Notes under the pieces: model-generated
What the model saw: the letters and a program-made list of their open reading frames with translations, nothing else
What the model was told of the DNA's origin: nothing
Database searches by the model: none
Program-made: the position numbers and the translations under genes
In this document: positions 23,778 to 54,996 of the stretch, one piece after another
Numbering within the stretch: the stretch's first letter is position 1
Layout of the letters: each line of letters begins with the position of its first letter
NCBI GenBank assembly: GCA_032117235.1
Contig: JAULZW010000012.1
Location: 3,230 to 67,229, forward strand
Length of the DNA stretch: 64,000 nt
Source of the DNA: Minisyncoccota bacterium
Lineage (GTDB): Bacteria > Patescibacteriota > Minisyncoccia > SW-4-49-11
Direction of reading: 5' to 3'

Positions 23778-25280
<1,503 letters not shown>

Positions 25281-32769: not shown

Positions 32770-33768
32770 TTAGAGGTTTTTAGGTGGTAATTTACCAAAA
32801 TACTCATAACACAAGCTAGTCACCATTCTACCTTTGGGAGTTCTTTGTAAAAGTCCCTGTCGCATCAAAAATGGCTCATAAATTTCCTCTATAGTCACAG
32901 TCTCCTCCGAAGTGGAAGCTGCCAAAGTAGACAATCCTACTGGACCACCATTAAAGATATTCATAATAGTCTCAAGAATTTTTCTATCCCCTGCCTCAAG
33001 GCCTTTATCATCTACATCCAGCAGGTCAAAAGTCTCTTTAATAACTTTATCATCAATCACTCCGTCATTATGAACTTCCGCAAAATCTCGTACTCGCTTT
33101 AATAATCTATTGGCTACTCTGGGAGTATGGCGACTTCTAGTAGCAATATGCTGATAAACCTCTGGAGAGTCCGCTTTGACCGACAAGATATTACTAGACC
33201 GCTTCAAAATATCTATAATATGGTCCTGATTATAAAAGTCAAAACTATAAATATTCCCAAAACGACTACGGAATGGCCCAGATAATGAGCCGAATTTAGT
33301 AGTAGCTCCAATCAGAGTAAATTTTGGCAAATCAAGTCTCAAAGTTCGAGCAGATGGCCCCTTACCCACAATAATATCCAAGACGAAATCCTCCATAGCT
33401 GAGTATAAAATCTCTTCTAAAGTCTTAGACAGACGATGAATTTCATCAATAAACAAAATATCCCCAGCCTCAATATTAGTTAGTATGGAAGCCAAGTCTC
33501 CCGCCTTCTCAAGAGCCGGACCCGAAGTAACCTTCATATTAGACCCAAGATACTTGGCAATCAGATAAGCTAAACTAGTCTTACCAAGTCCAGGAGGACC
33601 ATAGAATAAAAGATGATCTAGAGCCTCCCCCCTTTTTTGAGCCGCTTGAATAGAGATAGAAAGATTTTTTTTAATTTGATCTTGCCCAATATACTCCTCA
33701 AAAGTCTGTGGCCGCAAACTCTGATCTATACTACTATCTTCTTGTATTTCTTTTGATGATGTAATCAT
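32770..33768 (-). CDS. ruvB: Holliday junction ATP-dependent DNA helicase RuvB
   Basis: LRPQTFEEYIGQDQIKKNL...LLFYGPPGLGKTSLA, plus sensor and winged-helix regions. Confidence 0.9.
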   Translation of the reverse strand: MITSSKEIQEDSSIDQSLRPQTFEEYIGQDQIKKNLSISIQAAQKRGEALDHLLFYGPPGLGKTSLAYLIAKYLGSNMKVTSGPALEKAGDLASILTNIEAGDILFIDEIHRLSKTLEEILYSAMEDFVLDIIVGKGPSARTLRLDLPKFTLIGATTKFGSLSGPFRSRFGNIYSFDFYNQDHIIDILKRSSNILSVKADSPEVYQHIATRSRHTPRVANRLLKRVRDFAEVHNDGVIDDKVIKETFDLLDVDDKGLEAGDRKILETIMNIFNGGPVGLSTLAASTSEETVTIEEIYEPFLMRQGLLQRTPKGRMVTSLCYEYFGKLPPKNL

Positions 33769-33854
33769 AGATTACGATAATTATATAATATAATTATATC
33801 ATATTTTGAGGGGTTTGTATATAGTTTGGATAAGATAAGAGTGGGCTAAGATTT

Positions 33855-35078
33855 TTATTCATAAAATATAATTTCTCTTGTCCCGAAATTATATGCATTA
33901 AATACAATGTCCCATTCTTTAATAATATCATCAAGCTTTACTTCTTCTCTTGACTTATTATCATATAATGATTGTACATAATATTTTACATTATCATTTA
34001 AACTACATCCTTCATTAGCTAATCTGTATAGAACTGACTTATTGTCAGGTGAAAAACTAATAGGAGTCATAGGTTCTTCTGGGTTTCCTTTAAATGAAGC
34101 TATTTCTTTACCTGATAATGTCTCTAATACACTATATGAGTTTGGCAGTACGGTAGTATCATCTTCCCCATAACATGTTGGGAACCCTCTTGTAGTAAAT
34201 GTTTTAGGCTTAGTAAATAATGTATTATCAGTGTTGAATAAATCTATTCTTTCTGAAAGTAAAGAAAATTTTTGATTTGGAAAGGCTGATATTGTTTTAT
34301 TATCTTTATTAAATATATAGAACTCTTGTCTGAAGGAAGGGTTTTTTGTCGTAGTTTCTAAAGAATAACTTAATAAAATCTTATTTTCAGGCAACCACCT
34401 AGGATTGAATATTCCTGAGCGGGTTGTTACTGTTTTAATGATTTCATTTTTTTGACTTTCAATATTATACAAATAAAAATCATAATTTTTATCTCTATTA
34501 TTAGATTTGTATTTAGATCTTAGGAAAAATACTTCTTTAGAATTAGGAGAAAATATTGGATATTCTATATTAAAACCTGATTTAGATACAAGAATATCTC
34601 GAGTTTCTTTAGTCTCTATATTGAATAATTGTAATTTATCAGAACCTGAACCAGATCCATCATATGCATCTTCATACGAAATAAGTAAATTTTTTCTGTC
34701 TGGACTAAGGTCTACATTATAAGGTACAAATTGACCAACTAATGCATCTCTAAGCTCTAAGGTGGTCAAAAGTTCAGGATTAACATCATTAATAGTTCTT
34801 AAAACTTTTATATCCCAATTATCACCACTTTCATCAACTTTAACTTGCTCTGTATATATCTTTACTTTACTCTTTTCATTCTCCTCTACTGGCTCTGGTT
34901 CCACTACTTTTGGATCTGTATTAGCTGGTGCTGGGGATGGTGCTGGGGATGGCTCTATAACACTTACCTCAGCTATTGGCTCCTTGTTCATATCCCATAA
35001 TAGATACCCAAATACTGCTAAAATTACAAATATTATCCCGAAACCGATTATTGTTAATTTATCTTTTTCCCAATTCAT
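33855..35078 (-). CDS. Membrane-anchored, probably extracytoplasmic protein, paralogue A (beta-propeller-like C-terminal region)
   Basis: N-terminal MNWEKDKLTIIGFGIIFVILAVFGYLLWDMNKEPIAEVSV anchor, a Pro/Ala-rich linker, and a 330-aa divergent domain. Confidence 0.5.
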   Translation of the reverse strand: MNWEKDKLTIIGFGIIFVILAVFGYLLWDMNKEPIAEVSVIEPSPAPSPAPANTDPKVVEPEPVEENEKSKVKIYTEQVKVDESGDNWDIKVLRTINDVNPELLTTLELRDALVGQFVPYNVDLSPDRKNLLISYEDAYDGSGSGSDKLQLFNIETKETRDILVSKSGFNIEYPIFSPNSKEVFFLRSKYKSNNRDKNYDFYLYNIESQKNEIIKTVTTRSGIFNPRWLPENKILLSYSLETTTKNPSFRQEFYIFNKDNKTISAFPNQKFSLLSERIDLFNTDNTLFTKPKTFTTRGFPTCYGEDDTTVLPNSYSVLETLSGKEIASFKGNPEEPMTPISFSPDNKSVLYRLANEGCSLNDNVKYYVQSLYDNKSREEVKLDDIIKEWDIVFNAYNFGTREIIFYE

Positions 35079-35105
35079 AGTTTATGATTTAGTTTATTAT
35101 ATTTA

Positions 35106-36059
35106 CTACAAAACCTCTATTGTACTGAGAATGGTGTACATTATATTAGTGGCTTTCATCTCTTCATTTTCTGGATATGCAGATTGTGTGATAATTGCAA
35201 ACTTATCATTACCTAAATCAATTACAAATACTAGCTGATTATCAAATTCAATTTCTGGATCATCCATATTGTTTTCAGAATAATCTTGAGACCCAATAGC
35301 AATAGGATATTTAATCAATTGAGATGCCTTGTCTGTACTAATAAATGGATTCTTATATTGTAAAATTTCTTTTCCACTAACTCTTAAATTAATAATATCT
35401 ACTATTTTTTGAGATTCTCTACCTTTCGATGAAGAATTATATGCTATAAACTTTTCATCTGTACTACATTTCTCATCTAGAGTATATGGTGTCATACCTT
35501 CAGTCGGTATTATTGTATAGTTACACGTTTGATTTAATAATATATTTTCTATATCACTTAAATTTAACTCGGAAGTTTCCACAATATCAATATTTATTCT
35601 ACCTCGTGCTGGATCATAAGGCCCACCCCCACAATTAATACAATCATTAATACTTATCTTATCATACCCCTTTCCCAGTCTTTCTTTATTGTCTACTCCA
35701 AACATTAATCCGCCTATATCATATTTACCTAAATCGAAATGAGGGTCTAAAAATGATGAGTCTCCACTTCTATTATCTAAATCTTTATTCATTACCTTAT
35801 ACCTGATACCCACATCTCCCAATTTAGTCTCTCGGTATTCCCAACCTGTTGTATCTACTTTTGTAATAGGATATTCTGGTAAATCTTTTTTCTCTACTGG
35901 TTTTGGTATAACTGGAGATAGGGTTGGAGCTGGATCCGTCACACTTACCTCAGCTATCGGCTCTCGGTTCATATCCCATAATAGATACCCGAATACTCCC
36001 AAGATTACAAATATTATCCCGAATCCGATTATTGTTAATTTATCTTTTTGCCAATTCAT
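35106..36059 (-). CDS. Membrane-anchored, probably extracytoplasmic protein, paralogue B
   Basis: Its N-terminal 45 aa are nearly identical to paralogue A (about 90% nucleotide identity over about 140 nt). The C-terminal domain is unrelated. Confidence 0.5.
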   Translation of the reverse strand: MNWQKDKLTIIGFGIIFVILGVFGYLLWDMNREPIAEVSVTDPAPTLSPVIPKPVEKKDLPEYPITKVDTTGWEYRETKLGDVGIRYKVMNKDLDNRSGDSSFLDPHFDLGKYDIGGLMFGVDNKERLGKGYDKISINDCINCGGGPYDPARGRINIDIVETSELNLSDIENILLNQTCNYTIIPTEGMTPYTLDEKCSTDEKFIAYNSSSKGRESQKIVDIINLRVSGKEILQYKNPFISTDKASQLIKYPIAIGSQDYSENNMDDPEIEFDNQLVFVIDLGNDKFAIITQSAYPENEEMKATNIMYTILSTIEVL

Positions 36060-36097
36060 AATTTATGATTTAGTTATATTATATTTTCTCATCTTTA

Positions 36098-36125
36098 AGT
36101 ATACCCCCCCCCCCGATTTTGTCCA
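36098..36125 (-). promoter_or_regulatory. Candidate phase-variable promoter: -35 TGGACA, a 16-nt spacer containing G11, then -10 TATACT
   Basis: The minus strand reads cTGGACAaaatcGGGGGGGGGGGTATACTtaaag, about 40 nt upstream of the ATG at 36059. The homopolymer is C11 at plus 36104-36114. Confidence 0.45.
36104..36114. repeat. Homopolymeric C11/G11 tract
   Basis: Eleven consecutive C on the plus strand in an otherwise about 30% GC region. Confidence 0.9.
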
Positions 36126-36150
36126 GATTACTTATCCACAATTATAGCTT

Positions 36151-36978
36151 TTATTTTTTTAATTGTATCTCATATATTTGTGGCCAGAGTTTACCCGTTA
36201 TGAATACGGTATCGGTACTCGCTTTATAGGCAATACCATTTAACTCAGCTATATTGGGGTCTTTCTCTCGTGCTTGTGCGACGATATCGGACAAATCTAA
36301 TACCCCTAGTATTTCCCCATTATCAGGATTAATTTTGACAATTTTGTTGGTCTGATAAATATTGGCATATATGTAGCCAGCGACATATTCTAGCTCATTT
36401 AGATTATATTGAGGGCTATTCTGATACTTGACTGAGATTTGTCTTTTGGCTACAAAATCATTGAGATCAAGATAGGTTATTTTATCTGTGCCATCACTCA
36501 TAATTAGATTCTCTCCATCATTGGTCAATCCCCAACCTTCTCTACTCTCAAATTCAAAAGTCTGAATTTGCTCAAAAGTTTTAGCATCATAGACGAATCC
36601 TTTTTGATTCTTATAGGTGAGCTGATATATTTTATTATTGAGTATTGTACTCCCCTCTCCAAAATAGATATTACGGTCAAGTTCAGTTTTGATATCAATA
36701 TTACCTGTCTCTAAATCTAATGGACCTAGAATTGATTGTGTCTGTGGTAAATAGTCTGGCGAGCCAGTACTTTCATACAGTGTGTCTCCATAAAAAAATA
36801 ATCCCTGAGTATATGAATTAATATTATGAGGGTATTGATTAATTATCCTATATGAGAGAGATAGTATTTGGGGTGATTGATTATGGTTAAAGCTCCTATA
36901 GCTAATAATACCACCAAGTATACAAATACAAGATATAGCGATAAGAATAGCTATTCTTTTGTGATACCAATAAATCAT
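36151..36978 (-). CDS. Glutaminyl-peptide cyclotransferase (bacterial/plant beta-propeller type)
   Basis: N-terminal TM. YTQGLFFYGDTLYESTGSPDY and repeated propeller blades resemble PF05096. Confidence 0.5.
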   Translation of the reverse strand: MIYWYHKRIAILIAISCICILGGIISYRSFNHNQSPQILSLSYRIINQYPHNINSYTQGLFFYGDTLYESTGSPDYLPQTQSILGPLDLETGNIDIKTELDRNIYFGEGSTILNNKIYQLTYKNQKGFVYDAKTFEQIQTFEFESREGWGLTNDGENLIMSDGTDKITYLDLNDFVAKRQISVKYQNSPQYNLNELEYVAGYIYANIYQTNKIVKINPDNGEILGVLDLSDIVAQAREKDPNIAELNGIAYKASTDTVFITGKLWPQIYEIQLKK

Positions 36979-36982
36979 ATAC

Positions 36983-37528
36983 TTACTTTTCTAATTTCTT
37001 GAGAATAGTTTGTAATAATTCTAATTGTTGAGTCTGAATAGTATAAAGACTTTTAATTTGCTCATCAAATAATAAGTCGATTTTTTGGTGAAGTCCCCTT
37101 ACCTCAATTTCTGCTTTGAGATTAACAAGATAATCATTTTCTGCTCTTTGCCTATCTTTTTCTTCTTTGCGATTTTGACTCATCATAATAATAGGAGCTT
37201 GGAGAGCTGCAATACACGATAATACCAAATTCATCAGGATAAATGGATAAGGGTCAAATCTAAATACTCCCGTCATTACAATATTAAATATAATCCAGAT
37301 GGCAAGTAAGGTTAAAAAAGTAATAATAAATTTCCAACTACCTCCAAATTGAGCAACTTTATCAGATAAAGATTGACCACGGGTAAGTGTCTTTGTCGGT
37401 GGATTAAGAAGATGTTTGAGAATAAGTCTCTCCTCTTTAATACTATCTTCTACAATAGCATTAAGATCTTGTAAGTATTTTTTTTGCTCTTTTACAATTG
37501 CATTTATTTGTTTTTGATCTGGGCTCAT
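36983..37528 (-). CDS. DUF1003 membrane protein
   Basis: DPYPFILMNLVLSCIAALQAPIIMMSQNRKEEKDRQRAENDYLVNLKAEIE matches the DUF1003 consensus. Confidence 0.6.
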   Translation of the reverse strand: MSPDQKQINAIVKEQKKYLQDLNAIVEDSIKEERLILKHLLNPPTKTLTRGQSLSDKVAQFGGSWKFIITFLTLLAIWIIFNIVMTGVFRFDPYPFILMNLVLSCIAALQAPIIMMSQNRKEEKDRQRAENDYLVNLKAEIEVRGLHQKIDLLFDEQIKSLYTIQTQQLELLQTILKKLEK

Positions 37529-37547
37529 ATAATTTTTTATTAGTTAA

Positions 37548-37593
37548 ATTTATCATTCTCTAGCTTCGCTGCTCGAATGCAGGGACTCGGTCA
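37548..37593. repeat. 42-nt direct repeat, copy A (partial tRNA-Gln 3' end plus 25 nt of downstream flank)
   Basis: tttatcattctctAgcttcgctgCtcgaatgcagggactcg. It differs by 2 mismatches from 37713-37754. Confidence 0.8.
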
Positions 37594-37735
37594 CAAGTAA
37601 TTTACCTGACGGTAAATTCTCGCTACCCCGTCTCGCCGTGTTCGCCTTGCGCATAGCACAAACTCACACATGGCTCCGACTTTCTCGTCCTGACTAAAGC
37701 CAATAAATTGGCTTTATCATTCTCTCGCTTCGCTG

Positions 37736-37806
37736 TTCGAATGCAGGGACTCGAACCCCAATTGCTGGTGCCAGAAACCAGTGTCCTACCGTTAGACGAC
37801 ATTCGA
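37736..37806 (-). tRNA. tRNA-Gln (anticodon CUG)
   Basis: Manual fold. Acceptor TCGAATG/CATTCGA with U1-A72. D-stem GTCT/GGAC with a GG loop. Anticodon stem CTGGT/ACCAG with loop TTCTGGC (CUG). T-arm TGGGG-TTCGAGT-CCCTG. CCA is not encoded. Confidence 0.7.
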
Positions 37807-41089: not shown

Positions 41090-41258
41090 TAGGGGCGACC
41101 TGCCAGTCGCCTGCTTTTGTCCTCCCTCCAAAGGGAGACAAAAATGTATAGATCTCAACTGTCCTACCTTGGAAGAGGTGGCACGAATTGGATTGTTCTA
41201 AAATTCCCCTCTTGAGGGGTGGTAGGCTATGCCTGACGGGGTGGAAAAAATTTATCTC
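41090..41258. repeat. Cluster of GC-rich hairpin repeats, including an inverted copy of the DUF559 5' segment
   Basis: ggcgacctgccagtcgcc; ttgtcctccctccaaagggagacaa; gaagaggtggcac (inverted match to 38010-38060); aaaattcccctcttgaggggtgg...gacggggtggaaa at 41199-41256. Confidence 0.7.
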
Positions 41259-41719
41259 ACAAAACTCTCTATATACTTCTCTCTATTTTGTATAGACAAC
41301 ATAACCTGCACCACTACTCCGTCCATTGCTTTTTTGATTGCTATATCTTCACAATGTACTATTTCTAAATTGAGACTTTGTAAAAACTCTTCTCTTATTG
41401 TATCATATTCTCCTTTATAATTATGACTTTCTCCATCTATCTCTAATACTAAACCCAATTCAGGGATCAAAAAGTCTACAATATAGTTTCCTATAATCAC
41501 TTGTCTATCTATATCATATCCTAATAGTTTTTTGTCCTTAAATGCAAGCCAAAATAATACTTCTGATAATACACCTGCTTGCCTTAATTCTTTTGCTTTA
41601 GTTTTAAGTCTGGGATTCTTTGGTAGTTTAGAGTAATTATATTTCCACCCCGTCTTTGTTTCACAAATCCACCCCTCAAGAGGGGAATATTTTAGCTCCA
41701 TATTTTTATTATATCTCAA
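41252..41719 (-). CDS. DUF559 (Vsr-like endonuclease fold) domain protein
   Basis: LLGYDIDRQVIIGNYIVDFLIPELGLVLEIDGESHN matches the DUF559 core (KFRRQ..IG.YIVDF....KLVIELDG..H). The N-terminal codons SPLEGW...TGW are encoded by the GC-rich repeat. Confidence 0.65.
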   Translation of the reverse strand: MRYNKNMELKYSPLEGWICETKTGWKYNYSKLPKNPRLKTKAKELRQAGVLSEVLFWLAFKDKKLLGYDIDRQVIIGNYIVDFLIPELGLVLEIDGESHNYKGEYDTIREEFLQSLNLEIVHCEDIAIKKAMDGVVVQVMLSIQNREKYIESFVR

Positions 41720-42904: not shown

Positions 42905-43015
42905 GCCCTTGCGATGATCTACTTTCCCCACGAGGAGTATCATCGACTCACAGAGGCTTAACTTCTAGGTTCGGAATGTAACTAGGTGTACCCCTCTGTG
43001 ATAAATCACAAGGAC
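42905..43015 (-). rRNA. rrf: 5S ribosomal RNA
   Basis: The reverse complement gives GTCCTTGTGAT...CCGAACCTAGAAGTTAAGC...GGGAAAGTAGATCATCGCAAGGGC. It has the conserved CCGAAC..AGAAGTTAAGC loop-C region and a terminal helix I. Confidence 0.85.
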
Positions 43016-43126: not shown

Positions 43127-46135
<3,009 letters not shown>

Positions 46136-47047: not shown

Positions 47048-47431
47048 CTACTTTATTTTCAATATATGCTCTTGTTCTTCTATGACTTGTTCAATCATAA
47101 TATCTACACTAGATAATTCTTTTAGAATTTCATCATCAGTAAATCTCATTACTCTAAATCCTAGTTTTTCCAATCGATTTTGCCTAATACTATCATTGTT
47201 GGCTATTTCAATATGATTATGACTTTCTCCATCTACTTCTATGATGAGATGCAATTCTAAACACACAAAATCTACTATATATTGATCAATAACTCTTTGT
47301 CTACGGAATTTATGTCTTGTTTTAACCCCTTTCAAAATATATTTCCATAAACAAACTTCTGCCTTTGTCATCTCTTTTTTTAATGTATCAGCAATAGGTT
47401 TGAGTTGTATATTATAATGATGGTTTGGCAT
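47048..47431 (-). CDS. DUF559 (Vsr-like endonuclease fold) domain protein, second copy
   Basis: KFRRQRVIDQYIVDFVCLELHLIIEVDGESHN...RLEKLGFRVMRF matches the DUF559 consensus closely. Confidence 0.7.
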   Translation of the reverse strand: MPNHHYNIQLKPIADTLKKEMTKAEVCLWKYILKGVKTRHKFRRQRVIDQYIVDFVCLELHLIIEVDGESHNHIEIANNDSIRQNRLEKLGFRVMRFTDDEILKELSSVDIMIEQVIEEQEHILKIK

Positions 47432-47478
47432 ATATGATTTTGATATACACAGATTATACTATATATTCTGCTATCTTA

Positions 47479-47596
47479 TCCACCCCCGCCCTGCGGGCAC
47501 CCCCTCCGAAGGGGGATACATACTTTTGATATTCTATGAATATTTTTGCCCCCCTTTGGAGGGAGAATCACATAGCGGTGGGCGTGGATAAAATCC
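47479..47596. repeat. GC-rich hairpin cluster upstream of the second DUF559 gene
   Basis: atccacccccgccctgcgggcaccccctccgaagggggat; cccccctttggagggag; gcggtgggcgtggataaaatcc. Confidence 0.65.
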
Positions 47597-47662
47597 AATC
47601 TGTAAATAATATTGTGTCTACCTGTAACATAGCAGATAGGTCTACGAGGTTTCTCATCTTGT

Positions 47663-48454
47663 TTAATCTTTCCAACTATTATGTAGTGGTATTATATTTT
47701 TTAACTCTATTATCTCTTTATCACAATCTTTTAGATCATCTTCCCAACAAATAATAACATCATATTGATATTGAGGTTTATAGATACCCTCTCGTGTATA
47801 TGAGGACTTATATGTGGAGTAGAAAACTGTTCCCTCTTTTTGTGCTGAAAAAATCCTATCAAACACACTTAAGAACATATCCCTAATCCGCTTATCTGAA
47901 ATTGATTTAATGAATTCTTTATTTCTTAATAGACTACAAAATAGTTGCACACTATTTCTCATTACAACATCAATATATTCTAGAAGAGGAACAGAATCCT
48001 CTTTATATCTATTAATATTCGCTTCTGTAGTTAAGTTATCATATTGAGATAAATTTATTTTCCATTTGTTAAATAAATTTTTCACCTCTATGGTATCTTG
48101 ATAAATTCCTAAGATTAATTGCTTATCAAGATCAGATATATTCCAATTAGATAACATCTGTATATCAATTAATTTCTCAAGAACAGCAATACGAGGAGAA
48201 AATTTAGGATCATGGATATAAGGATCTTGAATATTTAGGTTATTATTATATGATTTTTCAATTGATGTAATAAAATTCATATTTTCCCATATCTCTATTA
48301 CCAAAGTAGTTTCAAAAAAATGCTGCAACTTTTCACGCTGTTTACGATCTTTATGTAAAGGGATTACAAGTCCAAATATTGCAATAATTAATCCGAGGAT
48401 ATTAATTAGATTATTTTGAATAGAGCAATTAATAACATCTATAAGATTATTCAT
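47663..48454 (-). CDS. Hypothetical protein with an N-terminal TM helix. Last gene of the putative defence operon
   Basis: 263 aa. A TM helix at residues about 15-35, then a soluble domain with no recognised motif. Lies 5 nt downstream of the DUF262-HNH gene. Confidence 0.45.
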   Translation of the reverse strand: MNNLIDVINCSIQNNLINILGLIIAIFGLVIPLHKDRKQREKLQHFFETTLVIEIWENMNFITSIEKSYNNNLNIQDPYIHDPKFSPRIAVLEKLIDIQMLSNWNISDLDKQLILGIYQDTIEVKNLFNKWKINLSQYDNLTTEANINRYKEDSVPLLEYIDVVMRNSVQLFCSLLRNKEFIKSISDKRIRDMFLSVFDRIFSAQKEGTVFYSTYKSSYTREGIYKPQYQYDVIICWEDDLKDCDKEIIELKNIIPLHNSWKD

Positions 48455-48459
48455 CCCAC

Positions 48460-49662
48460 CTACCGATTTCCCTTTGCTCTATTATGTGTCTTACATAACA
48501 TCTGACAATTCTTGATATCCGTTGCACCACCTTTACTCCAAGCAGTGATATGATCGGCGTCCATATCAGCTAAGCTCCAAATTTTATCTTTGTTGGCGTC
48601 ATTCCCGATCGTACAAAGAGGACAATTGGATATTCCTTTGCTTTTGGCTTCTTCTGTCTGTGTAGCATAGACGGATTTTTTAATTGCCTCATCAAAAATT
48701 CTAACATCAAGTAATTTAGTATCGATTGAACCTCCCAAGATATATTCAAATATTCCTTTACGGTTTTTGACATACGGATCGGCATAGAGTTGATGTACCT
48801 TGGCTGATACTTCACTAGGATTATAAGCTGTTTTATGATACATCTCATATAATCTCCCCCATTCGAGTCCCCGCATTTCAGATTCTACATCAATGAATAC
48901 TCCAGACACCCAATCAATCACGGTATTGAAGTATGTTTTGAGTTCAGCAATATTGTTATCATAGCGATGACGGCTCATATAGTCTCCAATATTTCCTTTA
49001 CTTACCCAATCAAGAGCTCTCTCAAGGAATTCCTGTCTATTGGCACTTCCTGAGATATAGGCTGACCATTTTTGGATATTTGCATTTTGGGTATTACTAA
49101 ATTCTTCTTTCCCAAGTGTAATAAAAGGTCCAGAATATACCGCATTCAATAATTCCTGATTATTAAGCGGAACTCCAGCGATATTGATAGTTCTGAACCA
49201 TTCCTTAATCTCACTTTCTGTCCCTTCACATTCATAAATCAAGAGTTTTGTCTCAAGGATTTTGGTTTGTTTATCCTCGGCAATTCCACTAAAATACTGC
49301 TCCATTCCATTCTCATCTTTAACCGCAAATTTATTGGTTACATATCGTCCAATACTGGTAATTCTCTGCTGTCCATCTAATACCTCAAAGTTATCTGTAC
49401 CAACGGTATTAAAATATATCAATCCCAAAGGATACCCCTTGAGAATAGATTCTATGACAGCTACATCTCGTTTCCCGTCAGCATAAATATAATTCCGCTG
49501 ATATTCTGGCTGAATAGTAAGTTTCCCCGCAAGTCCGAATAGCCCTTTTCCCTCTAGTTCATTGTATACAAAGCCATCACAAATATCTCGCACCATAATG
49601 TCTGTTCTCAATATTGTCTTCATATTATTTCTTCTTAATAGTATTTTTGAGCTTTTTGCCAA
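48460..49662 (-). CDS. DUF262 (ParB-like NTP-binding) plus C-terminal HNH nuclease. A GmrSD-like, type IV restriction-like enzyme
   Basis: [10 protein letters not shown] and LDGQQRITS are the DUF262 signatures. The C-terminus CPLC...[29 protein letters not shown] is an HNH/His-Me finger. The annotated start is a TTG. An alternative ATG lies at 49623. Confidence 0.7.
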
Positions 49663-50593
49663 GAGCTTTGATACTGTCTAAATATTCTTTTTCTACTGGA
49701 GATAATGTCTTTGCTTGATATTTGCGATATTCTTGTATGACTTTTTCTTGAGCTTTTTTATTACTTATTGTACCTGAATTTTTGAGTATTCCCTTACCAA
49801 AATTATCAGAGAACTTATCCAACTCCCTCATCCAGTCTTCCATACGCATTTCTTGATGTTCTTGAGCTTTGATTTCGGCTAAATCAAAGAAAGCCGATAC
49901 CAGCCGATTCAGACGAAACAGCTCCTCCTCAGTCAAATAATTTTTGGCTATACTTACATCAGACAATGTTGGGATAGCTCCAGCAAATGTAGTCAATCCC
50001 ATAAAATCTTTGGTCGCATCCGCTCGACTATACATTGTTTCAGCAGCAGTATGGGCATTGGTAGCATAATGTAATTTATTTTGTACAATCTTAAAGAATG
50101 TTACCGAAGTTTTACTTTTGGGATTATAATCCATACTTGTAGCATAGAGATCTAGTACTTGTCGATAGAGAGCTTTTTCACTACTGCGAATATCTCGAAT
50201 TCGATTCAGAAGTTCCTTCCAATATCTACCTCCACCGGTTTCTTTGAGCCTCTCATCATCCATCACATATCCTTTGATAATATATTCACGAATTTGACGA
50301 GTTGCCCATTGACGAAAACGGGTACCTTGTACAGAACTCACACGATAACCAACGGATATAATGACATCTAAATTATAATAATTAGTCGGCTTGGTAGAAA
50401 AATCGGAATTTCCGATTTTTCTACTGGTATCTTCTGGAGCTAACTCTTCTTCCTTATAAATATTCAAAATATGTTCATTGATAGTAGATCGACTTTTATT
50501 GAATAGTTGTGCCATTTGTTCAATACTCAACCATACCGTCTCATCTTGTAATTTCACCTGAATAGCTGGCTGACCATTGGCATTCTCATACAT
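49625..50593 (-). CDS. RhuM-family (Virulence_RhuM, PF13310) protein
   Basis: [45 protein letters not shown] is the RhuM hallmark. The ATG at 50593 is preceded by AAAGGTGAG. The ORF caller's longer N-terminus would overlap the methyltransferase. Confidence 0.65.
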
Positions 50594-50630
50594 AATAATC
50601 TCACCTTTGATATCTTTATCTTGCATAGAT

Positions 50631-51773
50631 TTATCGCTTATGTTTAATAAGTACTCGAGCATAAGGAACTTCAACTAGTCCATTTTTTATCATATATAAA
50701 TCACCATCCACTACCCCTCTTTTTTGAACCTCTTTACGATATTTTCTATGTTCTGGTTTATAAGGTCTTACTCCTATCGATAACCCCAAATTAGCTATTC
50801 CCAATCCGATAATCTCAAATTGCTCAGGACTATATTTATCTAAGAAACTTATCGGCACTCCCATTATTCCATCATAATCACTGGGGATGGCATTAGTATA
50901 TGGGATTTCTATGGCATCATAATTATCATATTTCTGATAACTATTTGGGTTAGTCTGAACCTTATTATTAAAGCGTTTATTATCCTCCATAGACATCAAG
51001 GGTAGGAGTTGATGTCTTTTGCCATGATCAATATTAGTAAACCAGCGAACACCTTTAACCCGAATATATCTTTTTCCAGCTTCATCAATTCTCCAACCAG
51101 CTGATTCTAAAGGATAACTTTCAGGAACTTCAAACTCCCTATCTCCACTCGAAATACTTTGTCCTAACCACATTTTATTTTCTTTAATCAAGGGGAAAAT
51201 TTCTTTATAGGTAATAGCATTCATATTCCCAATAACCACAAATTGCTTGTTAACTTCAGTAATCCATTCTAAAAATTCTCGGAATAAGGAAAAAGGCGGA
51301 TTGGTAATAATAATATCTGCCTCATCTCGCAATTTCTTGATCTCATCACTTCTGAAGTCTCCATCCCCTTTGAGATATTGCCATTCTAAATCTTCGACAT
51401 TGACTTTCCCTTCTCCTGTCTTATCTTGGGTTAAAGTGAAGATTTTCCCATTTTTGGCGGTTTTCTTTTTATCATATTGAGGGCTTGATTGTTCGAATAA
51501 GCTCGGTTGATAGATTTCTTTTAGATGTTTGCTTTCGGCAGCATAGCTAGTGCTAATTAGTTTTTTGAGTCCAAATTCTTGGAACTTTTGAGCAAAAAAC
51601 TTAGTAAAATTACTCCATTCTGGATCATCACAAGGAAGTAAAATAGTTTTATCTCGGAATATATCAGGATTATATTCTAAATAGGCAGATATTTCTTTTT
51701 CAATATCATGATATTGTGTATAAAATTCATCATTTTTTGCATTCTTTGCCCTTGTTAGATTGCTATTTGCCAT
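50631..51773 (-). CDS. N6-adenine DNA methyltransferase, EcoRI-methylase family (gamma-class, NPPF)
   Basis: The N-terminal NDEFYTQYHDIEKEI...DKTILLPCDDPEWSNFTKFF...GLKKLIS and the catalytic IIITNPPFSLFREFL closely match remembered M.EcoRI segments (SDEFYTQY...; TNPPFSLFREY). Confidence 0.7.
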   Translation of the reverse strand: MANSNLTRAKNAKNDEFYTQYHDIEKEISAYLEYNPDIFRDKTILLPCDDPEWSNFTKFFAQKFQEFGLKKLISTSYAAESKHLKEIYQPSLFEQSSPQYDKKKTAKNGKIFTLTQDKTGEGKVNVEDLEWQYLKGDGDFRSDEIKKLRDEADIIITNPPFSLFREFLEWITEVNKQFVVIGNMNAITYKEIFPLIKENKMWLGQSISSGDREFEVPESYPLESAGWRIDEAGKRYIRVKGVRWFTNIDHGKRHQLLPLMSMEDNKRFNNKVQTNPNSYQKYDNYDAIEIPYTNAIPSDYDGIMGVPISFLDKYSPEQFEIIGLGIANLGLSIGVRPYKPEHRKYRKEVQKRGVVDGDLYMIKNGLVEVPYARVLIKHKR

Positions 51774-54399: not shown

Positions 54400-54408
54400 G
54401 GGGGGGGG
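54400..54408. repeat. Homopolymeric G9 tract
   Basis: gtgatGGGGGGGGGttatg, immediately 3' of the stop of the minus-strand MsrQ-like gene, at a convergent gene junction. Confidence 0.9.
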
Positions 54409-54996
54409 TTATGCTTTTGACTGAAGGACTTTTTGGCGATAATATATATGTGAATATATCTGAATCACTAGTATGATAGCACTTGGAAGTCCATAGATGA
54501 GCGCATAATCTTGTCCTTGTAATGCGGTATGTAAAACCAGTAAAAACATTATAGGATAAACTAAAGTATGTAGAGTTTTCCAATATTTACCTAATTTCTT
54601 GACTGAAAAATTGTTAGATGTAAGAAATAATGGGGTTGTAAGTATAAGTGCGAATGAACCAAAAACCTGATATAAAGGGATATTACTAGGAATTCCTGAT
54701 TGAATTATATCAAAGCCACGCATCCACATAAAGTGAATAAAGGCAAAATTAAACATTATTATACCTAGATATCTGCGATGTTTCATTAGGAATAGCTGAA
54801 TTTTTTGTAGTTTATTTTTGACTCTAAATCTTTGAAATATCCCTGGAATAGCAATAATCCAAAATGTCCAAATTGAGAATTTACCACTAAAAGCTCCCAC
54901 TAGCTTTAAATCATAGTTATAAAAAACTAGACTCACCATAAAAACAGTAATTTGTAAATATATAAAGATTTTGAAATACCTTTTATACGAGTTCAT
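54409..54996 (-). CDS. MsrQ/YedZ-family ferric-reductase-like transmembrane haem protein
   Basis: [27 protein letters not shown] vs E. coli MsrQ [43 protein letters not shown] vs RRLLGLWCFAWATLHL. 6 TM helices with conserved His. Confidence 0.55.
   Translation of the reverse strand: [195 protein letters not shown]

Follow-up and report, generated by a model that had tools for sequence, protein, structure and literature searches.

An uninterrupted run of eleven G residues upstream of two tandem genes for predicted anchored proteins raises the question of whether homopolymer length could set the spacing of a promoter, and with it the expression of envelope proteins, in a freshwater bacterium of the Paceibacteria, within the CPR group. 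The run (36104-36114, minus strand; C11 on the plus strand) is the proposed slippage-prone element, and was analysed within the window, by which we mean the whole 64-kb stretch of DNA, with a GC content of 32.0%.

The homopolymer and the genes behind it

The first-pass annotation had placed a -35-like and a -10-like hexamer about 40 nt before the ATG at 36059, with a 16-nt spacer made largely of the G run, and both statements hold on the minus strand, which reads ...GTGGATAAGTAATC TGGACA AAATC GGGGGGGGGGG TATACT TAAAGATGAGAAAATATAATATAACTAAATCATAAATT ATG. The -35-like hexamer TGGACA (36120-36125, minus) matches TTGACA at five of six positions and is followed by AAATC (36115-36119, minus) and then by the G11, which is abutted by the -10-like hexamer TATACT (36098-36103, minus), a sequence present in every tract locus. 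The spacer from TGGACA to TATACT is 16 nt and TATACT stands 38 nt from the ATG, upstream of which no Shine-Dalgarno sequence was found. The homopolymer itself is highly non-random, as had been argued from the low GC content, since a G/C run of at least 11 is expected only 4e-4 to 4e-3 times per window (3.7e-4 with independent bases, about 4e-3 under a first-order Markov model), and the single other G/C run of at least eight in the 64 kb is a G9 at 54400-54408. In a consensus scan of 33500-37800 the pair TGGACA-16-TATACT came joint top with 10 of 12 matches; promoter-like pairs as a class are not enriched in that interval, with 28 found against 23.5 +/- 5.6 in shuffles, and so the hexamer match alone is weak evidence. 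The tract is not in a reading frame and hence does not belong with the intragenic frameshift switches of the Campylobacter and Neisseria type. An explanation of the tract at the RNA level was tried and set aside, the leader structure being at chance level (z = -0.17), with no Rfam match at E <= 1 and no terminator-like site in 33500-37800, including none that separates the preceding cyclase gene from the cassette.

The gene order on the minus strand is a DUF1003 gene (36983-37528), a glutaminyl cyclase gene (36151-36978; PF05096, E 2.8e-81) that forms the upstream border of the variable locus, the tract, a 317-aa gene (35106-36059), a 407-aa gene (33855-35078) and ruvB (32770-33768). Within it the tract stands 45 nt before the ATG and 36 nt past the stop codon of the preceding gene. 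The first cassette gene encodes an N-terminal transmembrane anchor, a disordered Pro-rich linker and an alpha/beta domain, and the second the same anchor module and then a beta-propeller domain. In the AlphaFold models of both products a helix (residues 3-30) is joined by a disordered Pro-rich linker to a folded outer domain. For the 317-aa product (pLDDT 80) the best PDB matches are to PsbP and are weak (E 6e-3, not significant at 1e-3), and the 407-aa product (pLDDT 74.5) matches the propellers of S9 peptidases, oligogalacturonate lyase and WD40 proteins with E about 4e-8. No Pfam family was found for either product, and neither has a Cys in its first 60 residues, so that a lipobox is lacking. 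The earlier description of these proteins as membrane-anchored and probably surface-exposed is supported by prediction, namely by the N-terminal helix, the linker and the outer domain. Their description as tandem paralogues holds for the 5' anchor module that they have in common, but not for the outer domains, which are unrelated.

Indeed the products are alike only over their first ~40 residues, where identity is 93% (MNW[Q/E]KDKLTIIGFGIIFVIL.VFGYLLWDMN.EPIAEVSV), and are unrelated beyond. At the DNA level this shared 5' module is a direct repeat of 164 nt and 87% identity, made up of 16 nt before the ATG and 148 nt of coding sequence, with one copy at 35912-36075 and the other, a candidate substrate for the gain, loss and reordering of cassettes, at 34931-35094 (both minus). 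Only 27 nt precede the second gene and these carry no tract, which thus stands solely before the first cassette. The family to which the genes belong is a small one, with 65 detectable homologues that diverge from one another and vary in copy number, and the few members named by their source are assigned to Parcubacteria, Paceibacterota or Minisyncoccia. The closest genome records for the glutaminyl cyclase are likewise MAGs labelled Candidatus Paceibacteria/Parcubacteria, at 81-82% amino-acid identity, and the Lake Mendota series accounts for several of these.

Among the other genes of the window are those for an LTD (Lamin Tail Domain) protein, MurJ, LepA and PriA as well as RuvB. The rRNA genes (23779-25279, 42906-43013 and 43128-46135, all minus) are unlinked, with ~18 kb separating the 16S gene from the 23S-5S pair, and the 23S match of 3,008 nt against a model of 2,925 positions suggests a small insertion. 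Genes of a defence type are clustered at 47048-51773 (minus), with a further stretch at 41252-41719, and encode a RhuM family protein, a GmrSD_N + HNH endonuclease, two DUF559 (Vsr-like) proteins and an EcoRI-like adenine methyltransferase (50631-51773, minus). In most genes of the window a (TGn)TATAAT precedes the start codon by 10-30 nt and a Shine-Dalgarno motif is lacking, a pattern which suggests that initiation here relies little on Shine-Dalgarno pairing and that promoters are dominated by the -10 element.

Tract length in related strains

Related contigs were retrieved from JGI, ENA, Logan and NCBI by a protein-guided search; an exact DNA scan of metagenome contigs with the 22-nt upstream flank gave no match. 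A complete tract at the identical position is found in 17 independent contigs from related Paceibacteria, the window counted. The window's proteins are also encoded on two contigs from JGI sample 3300059473, which were not counted, being broken near the locus although not at the tract. The lengths are G8 in three contigs, G9 in one, G10 in six, G11 in five (including the window) and G15 in one, and the remaining contig has an interrupted GGAG7. Behind the -35-like box TGGACA the tract is G11 in the window and in L070 and L071, and G8 in L066, L067 and L068, which come from three samples, in each case with no TAA after the tract; with the same box and a TAA after the tract it is G10 in L011 and L012 and G15 in L010. 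The other lineages all have the TAA: those with TAGACA have G9 (L017), the interrupted GGAG7 (L021) or G10 (L079), and those with TATACA have G11 (L023, which equals L073, and L075), G10 (L076), or G10 with A instead of C before the tract (L074, L077).

The sharpest comparison is that of L010 with L012, two samples of one project, which align over 5,954 nt with no mismatches and a single gap, of 5 nt, that is the tract itself (G15 against G10). Similarly one and the same protein, P0028, is found behind G11 and behind G10. A check on related genomes had been proposed for the idea of a variable tract, with a fixed length in related strains named as the outcome that would speak against it; what is seen is the opposite, with lengths of 8, 9, 10, 11 and 15 among orthologous loci. 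Of four groups of identical contigs, three are each uniform in tract length (L073 and L075; L066, L067 and L068; L070 and L071), and because most such groups agree the consensus lengths are stable on short time scales, yet not fixed. By the same token, with G8 retained in three samples, switching is not extremely fast at the consensus level.

The related loci, 218 kb in total, contain 17 G/C runs of at least eight, every one of them at the promoter tract site or at the second tract described below, and a hypermutable tract is the simplest reading of these data. Between the lineages there is no compensation between the TAA indel and tract length, those without the TAA having tracts of 8, 11 and 11 against 9-11 and 15 in those with it. 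Purity of the tract (one interruption in 11 lineages) was considered as a sign of selection and set aside, since by an estimate made by eye it is not clearly above the conservation of the flanks. The tract also breaks assemblies at this locus, which is a practical warning: four contigs end within 10 nt of it, with L001 ending 8 nt 3' of the tract, L011 starting 3 nt 5' of it, L072 starting 1 nt past it and L078 starting at its last G; such breaks may be an indirect hint of length change within populations.

The second homopolymer of the window (54400-54408, G9 on the plus and C9 on the minus strand) directly follows the stop codon of a ferric-reductase-like gene (54409-54996, minus), in a convergent intergenic region and ~60 nt upstream of a 27-codon minus-strand ORF. 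Its length too varies while the protein is identical, as TAA-C9 in the window and L062, TAAA-C6 in L061 and L063, and TAAA-C7 in L064 and L065. In L080-L082 the 317-aa gene (P0067) occupies the second place of the array, lacks a promoter tract and contains an in-frame G9 (TGT GGG GGG GGG CCT) that could be a frameshift-type switch; the corresponding CGGGP motif near codon 143 is written GGGGGTGGG in the window, and GGGGGTGGG or GGGGGTGGC in other strains. Separately, a GC-rich modular hairpin element (...CCCCCTTCGGAGGGGG..GCCCGCAGGGC..GGGGGTGGATAAGATA) is present at 47465-47600 (minus) of the window and is repeated at different loci, being found also in L021, L022, L024, L025, L028 and L077-L081; it folds at -59.9 kcal/mol (z = -4.8) and belongs to no Rfam family.

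Candidate promoter elements around the tract

Whether the boxes on either side of the tract belong to a promoter at all is best addressed by comparison with other promoters of the lineage. The ruvB promoter TATACA-N17-TGATATAAT (33793-33821, minus) is another top match of the consensus scan, and in the form CTATACA-N17-TG(A/C)TATAAT, ending 26 nt before the ATG, it is kept in ~30 related loci across species. This conservation therefore shows the promoter form of the lineage, in which TATACA serves as the -35 and the -10 is an extended one. Relatives without a tract (L013, L018, L020, L022, L028 and L083-85) have TATACA-N16-TGCTAATAT at the homologous place before the cassette gene, where the element likewise stops 26 nt short of the ATG, and the -35-like box of the tract loci is positionally homologous to the TATACA of both the ruvB promoter and these tract-free cassette promoters. 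The left part remains the same in tract loci, L023 reading CTATACAAAATC-G11 and others CTGGACAAAATC or CTAGACAAAATC, and relative to the tract-free homologues Gn replaces the central spacer, the TGn is lost and TATACT comes next. Because of this homology of the -35-like box, the tract probably occupies the spacer in a promoter of a genuine type.

By established sigma-70 logic a promoter that lacks the TGn depends on its -35 element and hence would depend on spacing, with functional spacers of 16-18 nt. In most tract lineages the -35 matches TTGACA at five of six positions, and the implied spacers between it and TATACT are, by lineage, 13, 16, 16, 17, 18 (six lineages), 19 and 23 nt. Most are thus in or beside the 16-18 range, and the two outliers (13 and 23) would be predicted to be off.

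The reading that we favour, with modest confidence though with good support from the comparison of strains, is that tract length sets the -35/-10 spacing in a slipped-strand switch of the porA, opc and vlp type. The G11 would be a slippage-prone run in the spacer of a sigma-70-type promoter (T[G/A][G/T]ACA ... TATACT) from which the first gene, and probably the entire tandem array of genes for anchored outer-domain proteins, is transcribed, and replication slippage, by gaining or losing a G, would shift the distance between the two boxes. As that distance changes, expression is predicted to be on or graded at about 16-18 nt and to be off at lengths such as the outlying ones. Loss of the TGn together with the better -35 of most lineages would leave the promoter reliant on the -35 contact and so on spacing. 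We infer that the tract promoter is probably in use, that tract length would control its transcription, and that switching within populations would be frequent and reversible.

It is rather unlikely, although to be taken seriously, that the tract is hypermutable and has no regulatory role, being a remnant of the GC-rich hairpin element, or a recombination junction with it, that varies in length simply as any long homopolymer does by slippage, beside genes that are transcribed independently. The tract may derive from or recombine with that element, because in L080 and L081 the element's G-rich right end GGCGGGGGTGG is fused straight to GTAATATACTTATAGATGAG, the sequence normally found after the tract; the terminal motif of the element, GTGGATAAG, which is its right terminus, also occurs at 36131-36139 (minus), just upstream of the -35-like box. 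That tract length does not compensate for the TAA indel, and that purity is not clearly above that of the flanks, likewise speaks for a tract without function. Against this, the tract persists in exactly one position, with conserved promoter-like boxes on either side, in lineages that share only ~81-90% identity in the cyclase gene, which is notable in genomes of 32-36% GC where 218 kb carry G/C runs of at least eight at only one other site, and most of the implied spacers come to 16-19 nt.

Improbable in our judgement is an effect of the tract on expression by some route other than the spacing of TATACT, either with a downstream TATAAT as the real -10, so that the tract alters upstream contacts, or with the tract in a 5' UTR. 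The downstream TATAAT (36078-36083, minus), which the first-pass annotation had named as a possible start element that would take the tract out of the promoter, is an exact rival -10 element at a distance of 18 nt from the ATG. It belongs to the 5' module of each cassette and so recurs before the second gene, is kept in all tract and tract-free loci, sits at the usual -10 distance of this genome from the ATG, and would put the tract at about -33 to -43; against it, the element has neither a TGn nor a recognisable -35. A 5' UTR location would follow from a possible third promoter, GATACA-N17-TATAAT, whose TATAAT (36141-36146, minus) lies upstream of the tract, or, in a read-through version, from the want of a terminator after the cyclase gene, and effects of simple sequence repeats via the 5' UTR are known in Haemophilus (PMC12721329). 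That upstream TATAAT is however absent from the tract loci L010-L012, and the leader, as given above, has no more structure than chance and no Rfam match. A sequencing or assembly artefact, whether of the tract or of its length differences, is rejected because, error-prone as homopolymers are and though several contigs break at the tract, it recurs at one position in 17 contigs, which stem from four data sources and were built by several assemblers, identical strains from different samples agree in length in three of four groups, and the 5-nt consensus difference between G10 and G15 is beyond typical Illumina consensus error.

Cassette exchange and comparison with known switches

Besides the putative switch in promoter spacing, the slot between the cyclase gene and ruvB varies in content, holding from none to three cassettes depending on the strain. 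In L026, L027 and L029 there is no cassette and the cyclase gene adjoins ruvB; a single PsbP-like cassette is found in L003-5, L010-12 and L066-68, and a single propeller cassette in L018, L019, L022, L070 and L083. The window has the PsbP-like cassette followed by the propeller cassette, L017 and L080 have the reverse order, and L021, L028 and L069 have three cassettes. L070 is the same as the window from the 3' end of the cyclase gene across the intergenic region and for 133 nt into the cassette gene, and then continues with the window's second cassette, an arrangement that amounts to deletion of cassette 1 between the two 5' modules. In L007 the flanks are 99.5% identical to the window and the second cassette is different. 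Because of these two arrangements it seems that the outer domain behind the tract promoter changes by recombination between modules. In L028 (2977-5400) two tandem propeller cassettes, both of 397 aa and with identical similarity scores to the window's 407-aa protein, look like a recent tandem duplication in the array. Recombination between the 164-nt 5' modules would thereby supply a second layer of variation, in which both the cassette next to the switchable promoter and the number of cassettes vary.

In its architecture the locus corresponds to those simple-sequence contingency loci that have the repeat in a promoter spacer. The tract of Neisseria meningitidis porA is reportedly about 9-11 long, with strains differing in length and with spacing setting expression, and the promoter tract of opc in the same species is said to give graded or on-off expression. 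Like the locus here, porA has a poly-G between the -35 and -10 of a surface-protein gene (van der Ende et al. 1995, J Bacteriol 177:2475, via PMC5084427), and opc has a homopolymeric promoter tract, of poly-C, at the gene of an outer surface protein (Sarkari et al. 1994, Mol Microbiol 13:207, via PMC5084427). The porA case is that of a mucosal pathogen with one porin gene, whereas here the organism is an uncultivated freshwater CPR bacterium, the promoter stands before a recombining cassette array and the effect of length is a prediction; opc differs in the same way, in its host and in being a single gene instead of a cassette array.

Closer in gene organisation are the vlp genes of Mycoplasma hyorhinis, in which on/off switching occurs by indels in a promoter homopolymer (Citti and Wise 1995, summarised in PMC10502178). 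These resemble the present locus in belonging to a genome-reduced bacterium and in being tandem surface genes with a conserved 5' region, for a leader or anchor, and divergent outer parts; the vlp tract is poly-A, stands before every gene and controls lipoproteins, whereas here it is poly-G, before the first gene only, and the anchor helix is uncleaved and without a lipobox. A homopolymer promoter of its own for each member, as in vlp, is thus not what is found here. Vmm of Mycoplasma mycoides (Persson et al. 2002, summarised in PMC10502178) is also a variable surface protein with a repeat in its promoter spacer, and the repeat is a dinucleotide. Within the CPR group the nearest report found concerns a PTD-repeat surface protein of Gracilibacteria (BD1-5) (PMC6851277), which like the proteins here has a predicted N-terminal anchor, is extracellular and shows hypervariation at the population level with a broken assembly, but which has intragenic 9-nt repeats and synonymous variation and is without a promoter homopolymer or on/off logic (PMC6851277).

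Taken as a whole, a two-layer contingency locus in a CPR bacterium, with a poly-G spacer switch and the shuffling of 0-3 PsbP-like/beta-propeller cassettes, by which clonal, ultra-small and probably host-attached freshwater cells would vary their displayed envelope proteins, is a tentative proposal that falls just short of what we would call probable. No description of homopolymer phase variation in Patescibacteria, CPR or Saccharibacteria was met with in the literature searched, and to our knowledge nearly all recorded cases of slipped-strand phase variation are in host-adapted pathogens and mycoplasmas. Several of the related contigs come from Lake Mendota time-series metagenomes. If the proposal is right, no simple-sequence contingency locus would have been described in the CPR group before this one. 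Display would then be varied for example for host attachment or phage evasion, and the shuffled envelope proteins would be candidates for host attachment and phage interaction, both of which are poorly understood in the CPR group. It would also mean that CPR bacteria, too, bet-hedge the composition of their surface.
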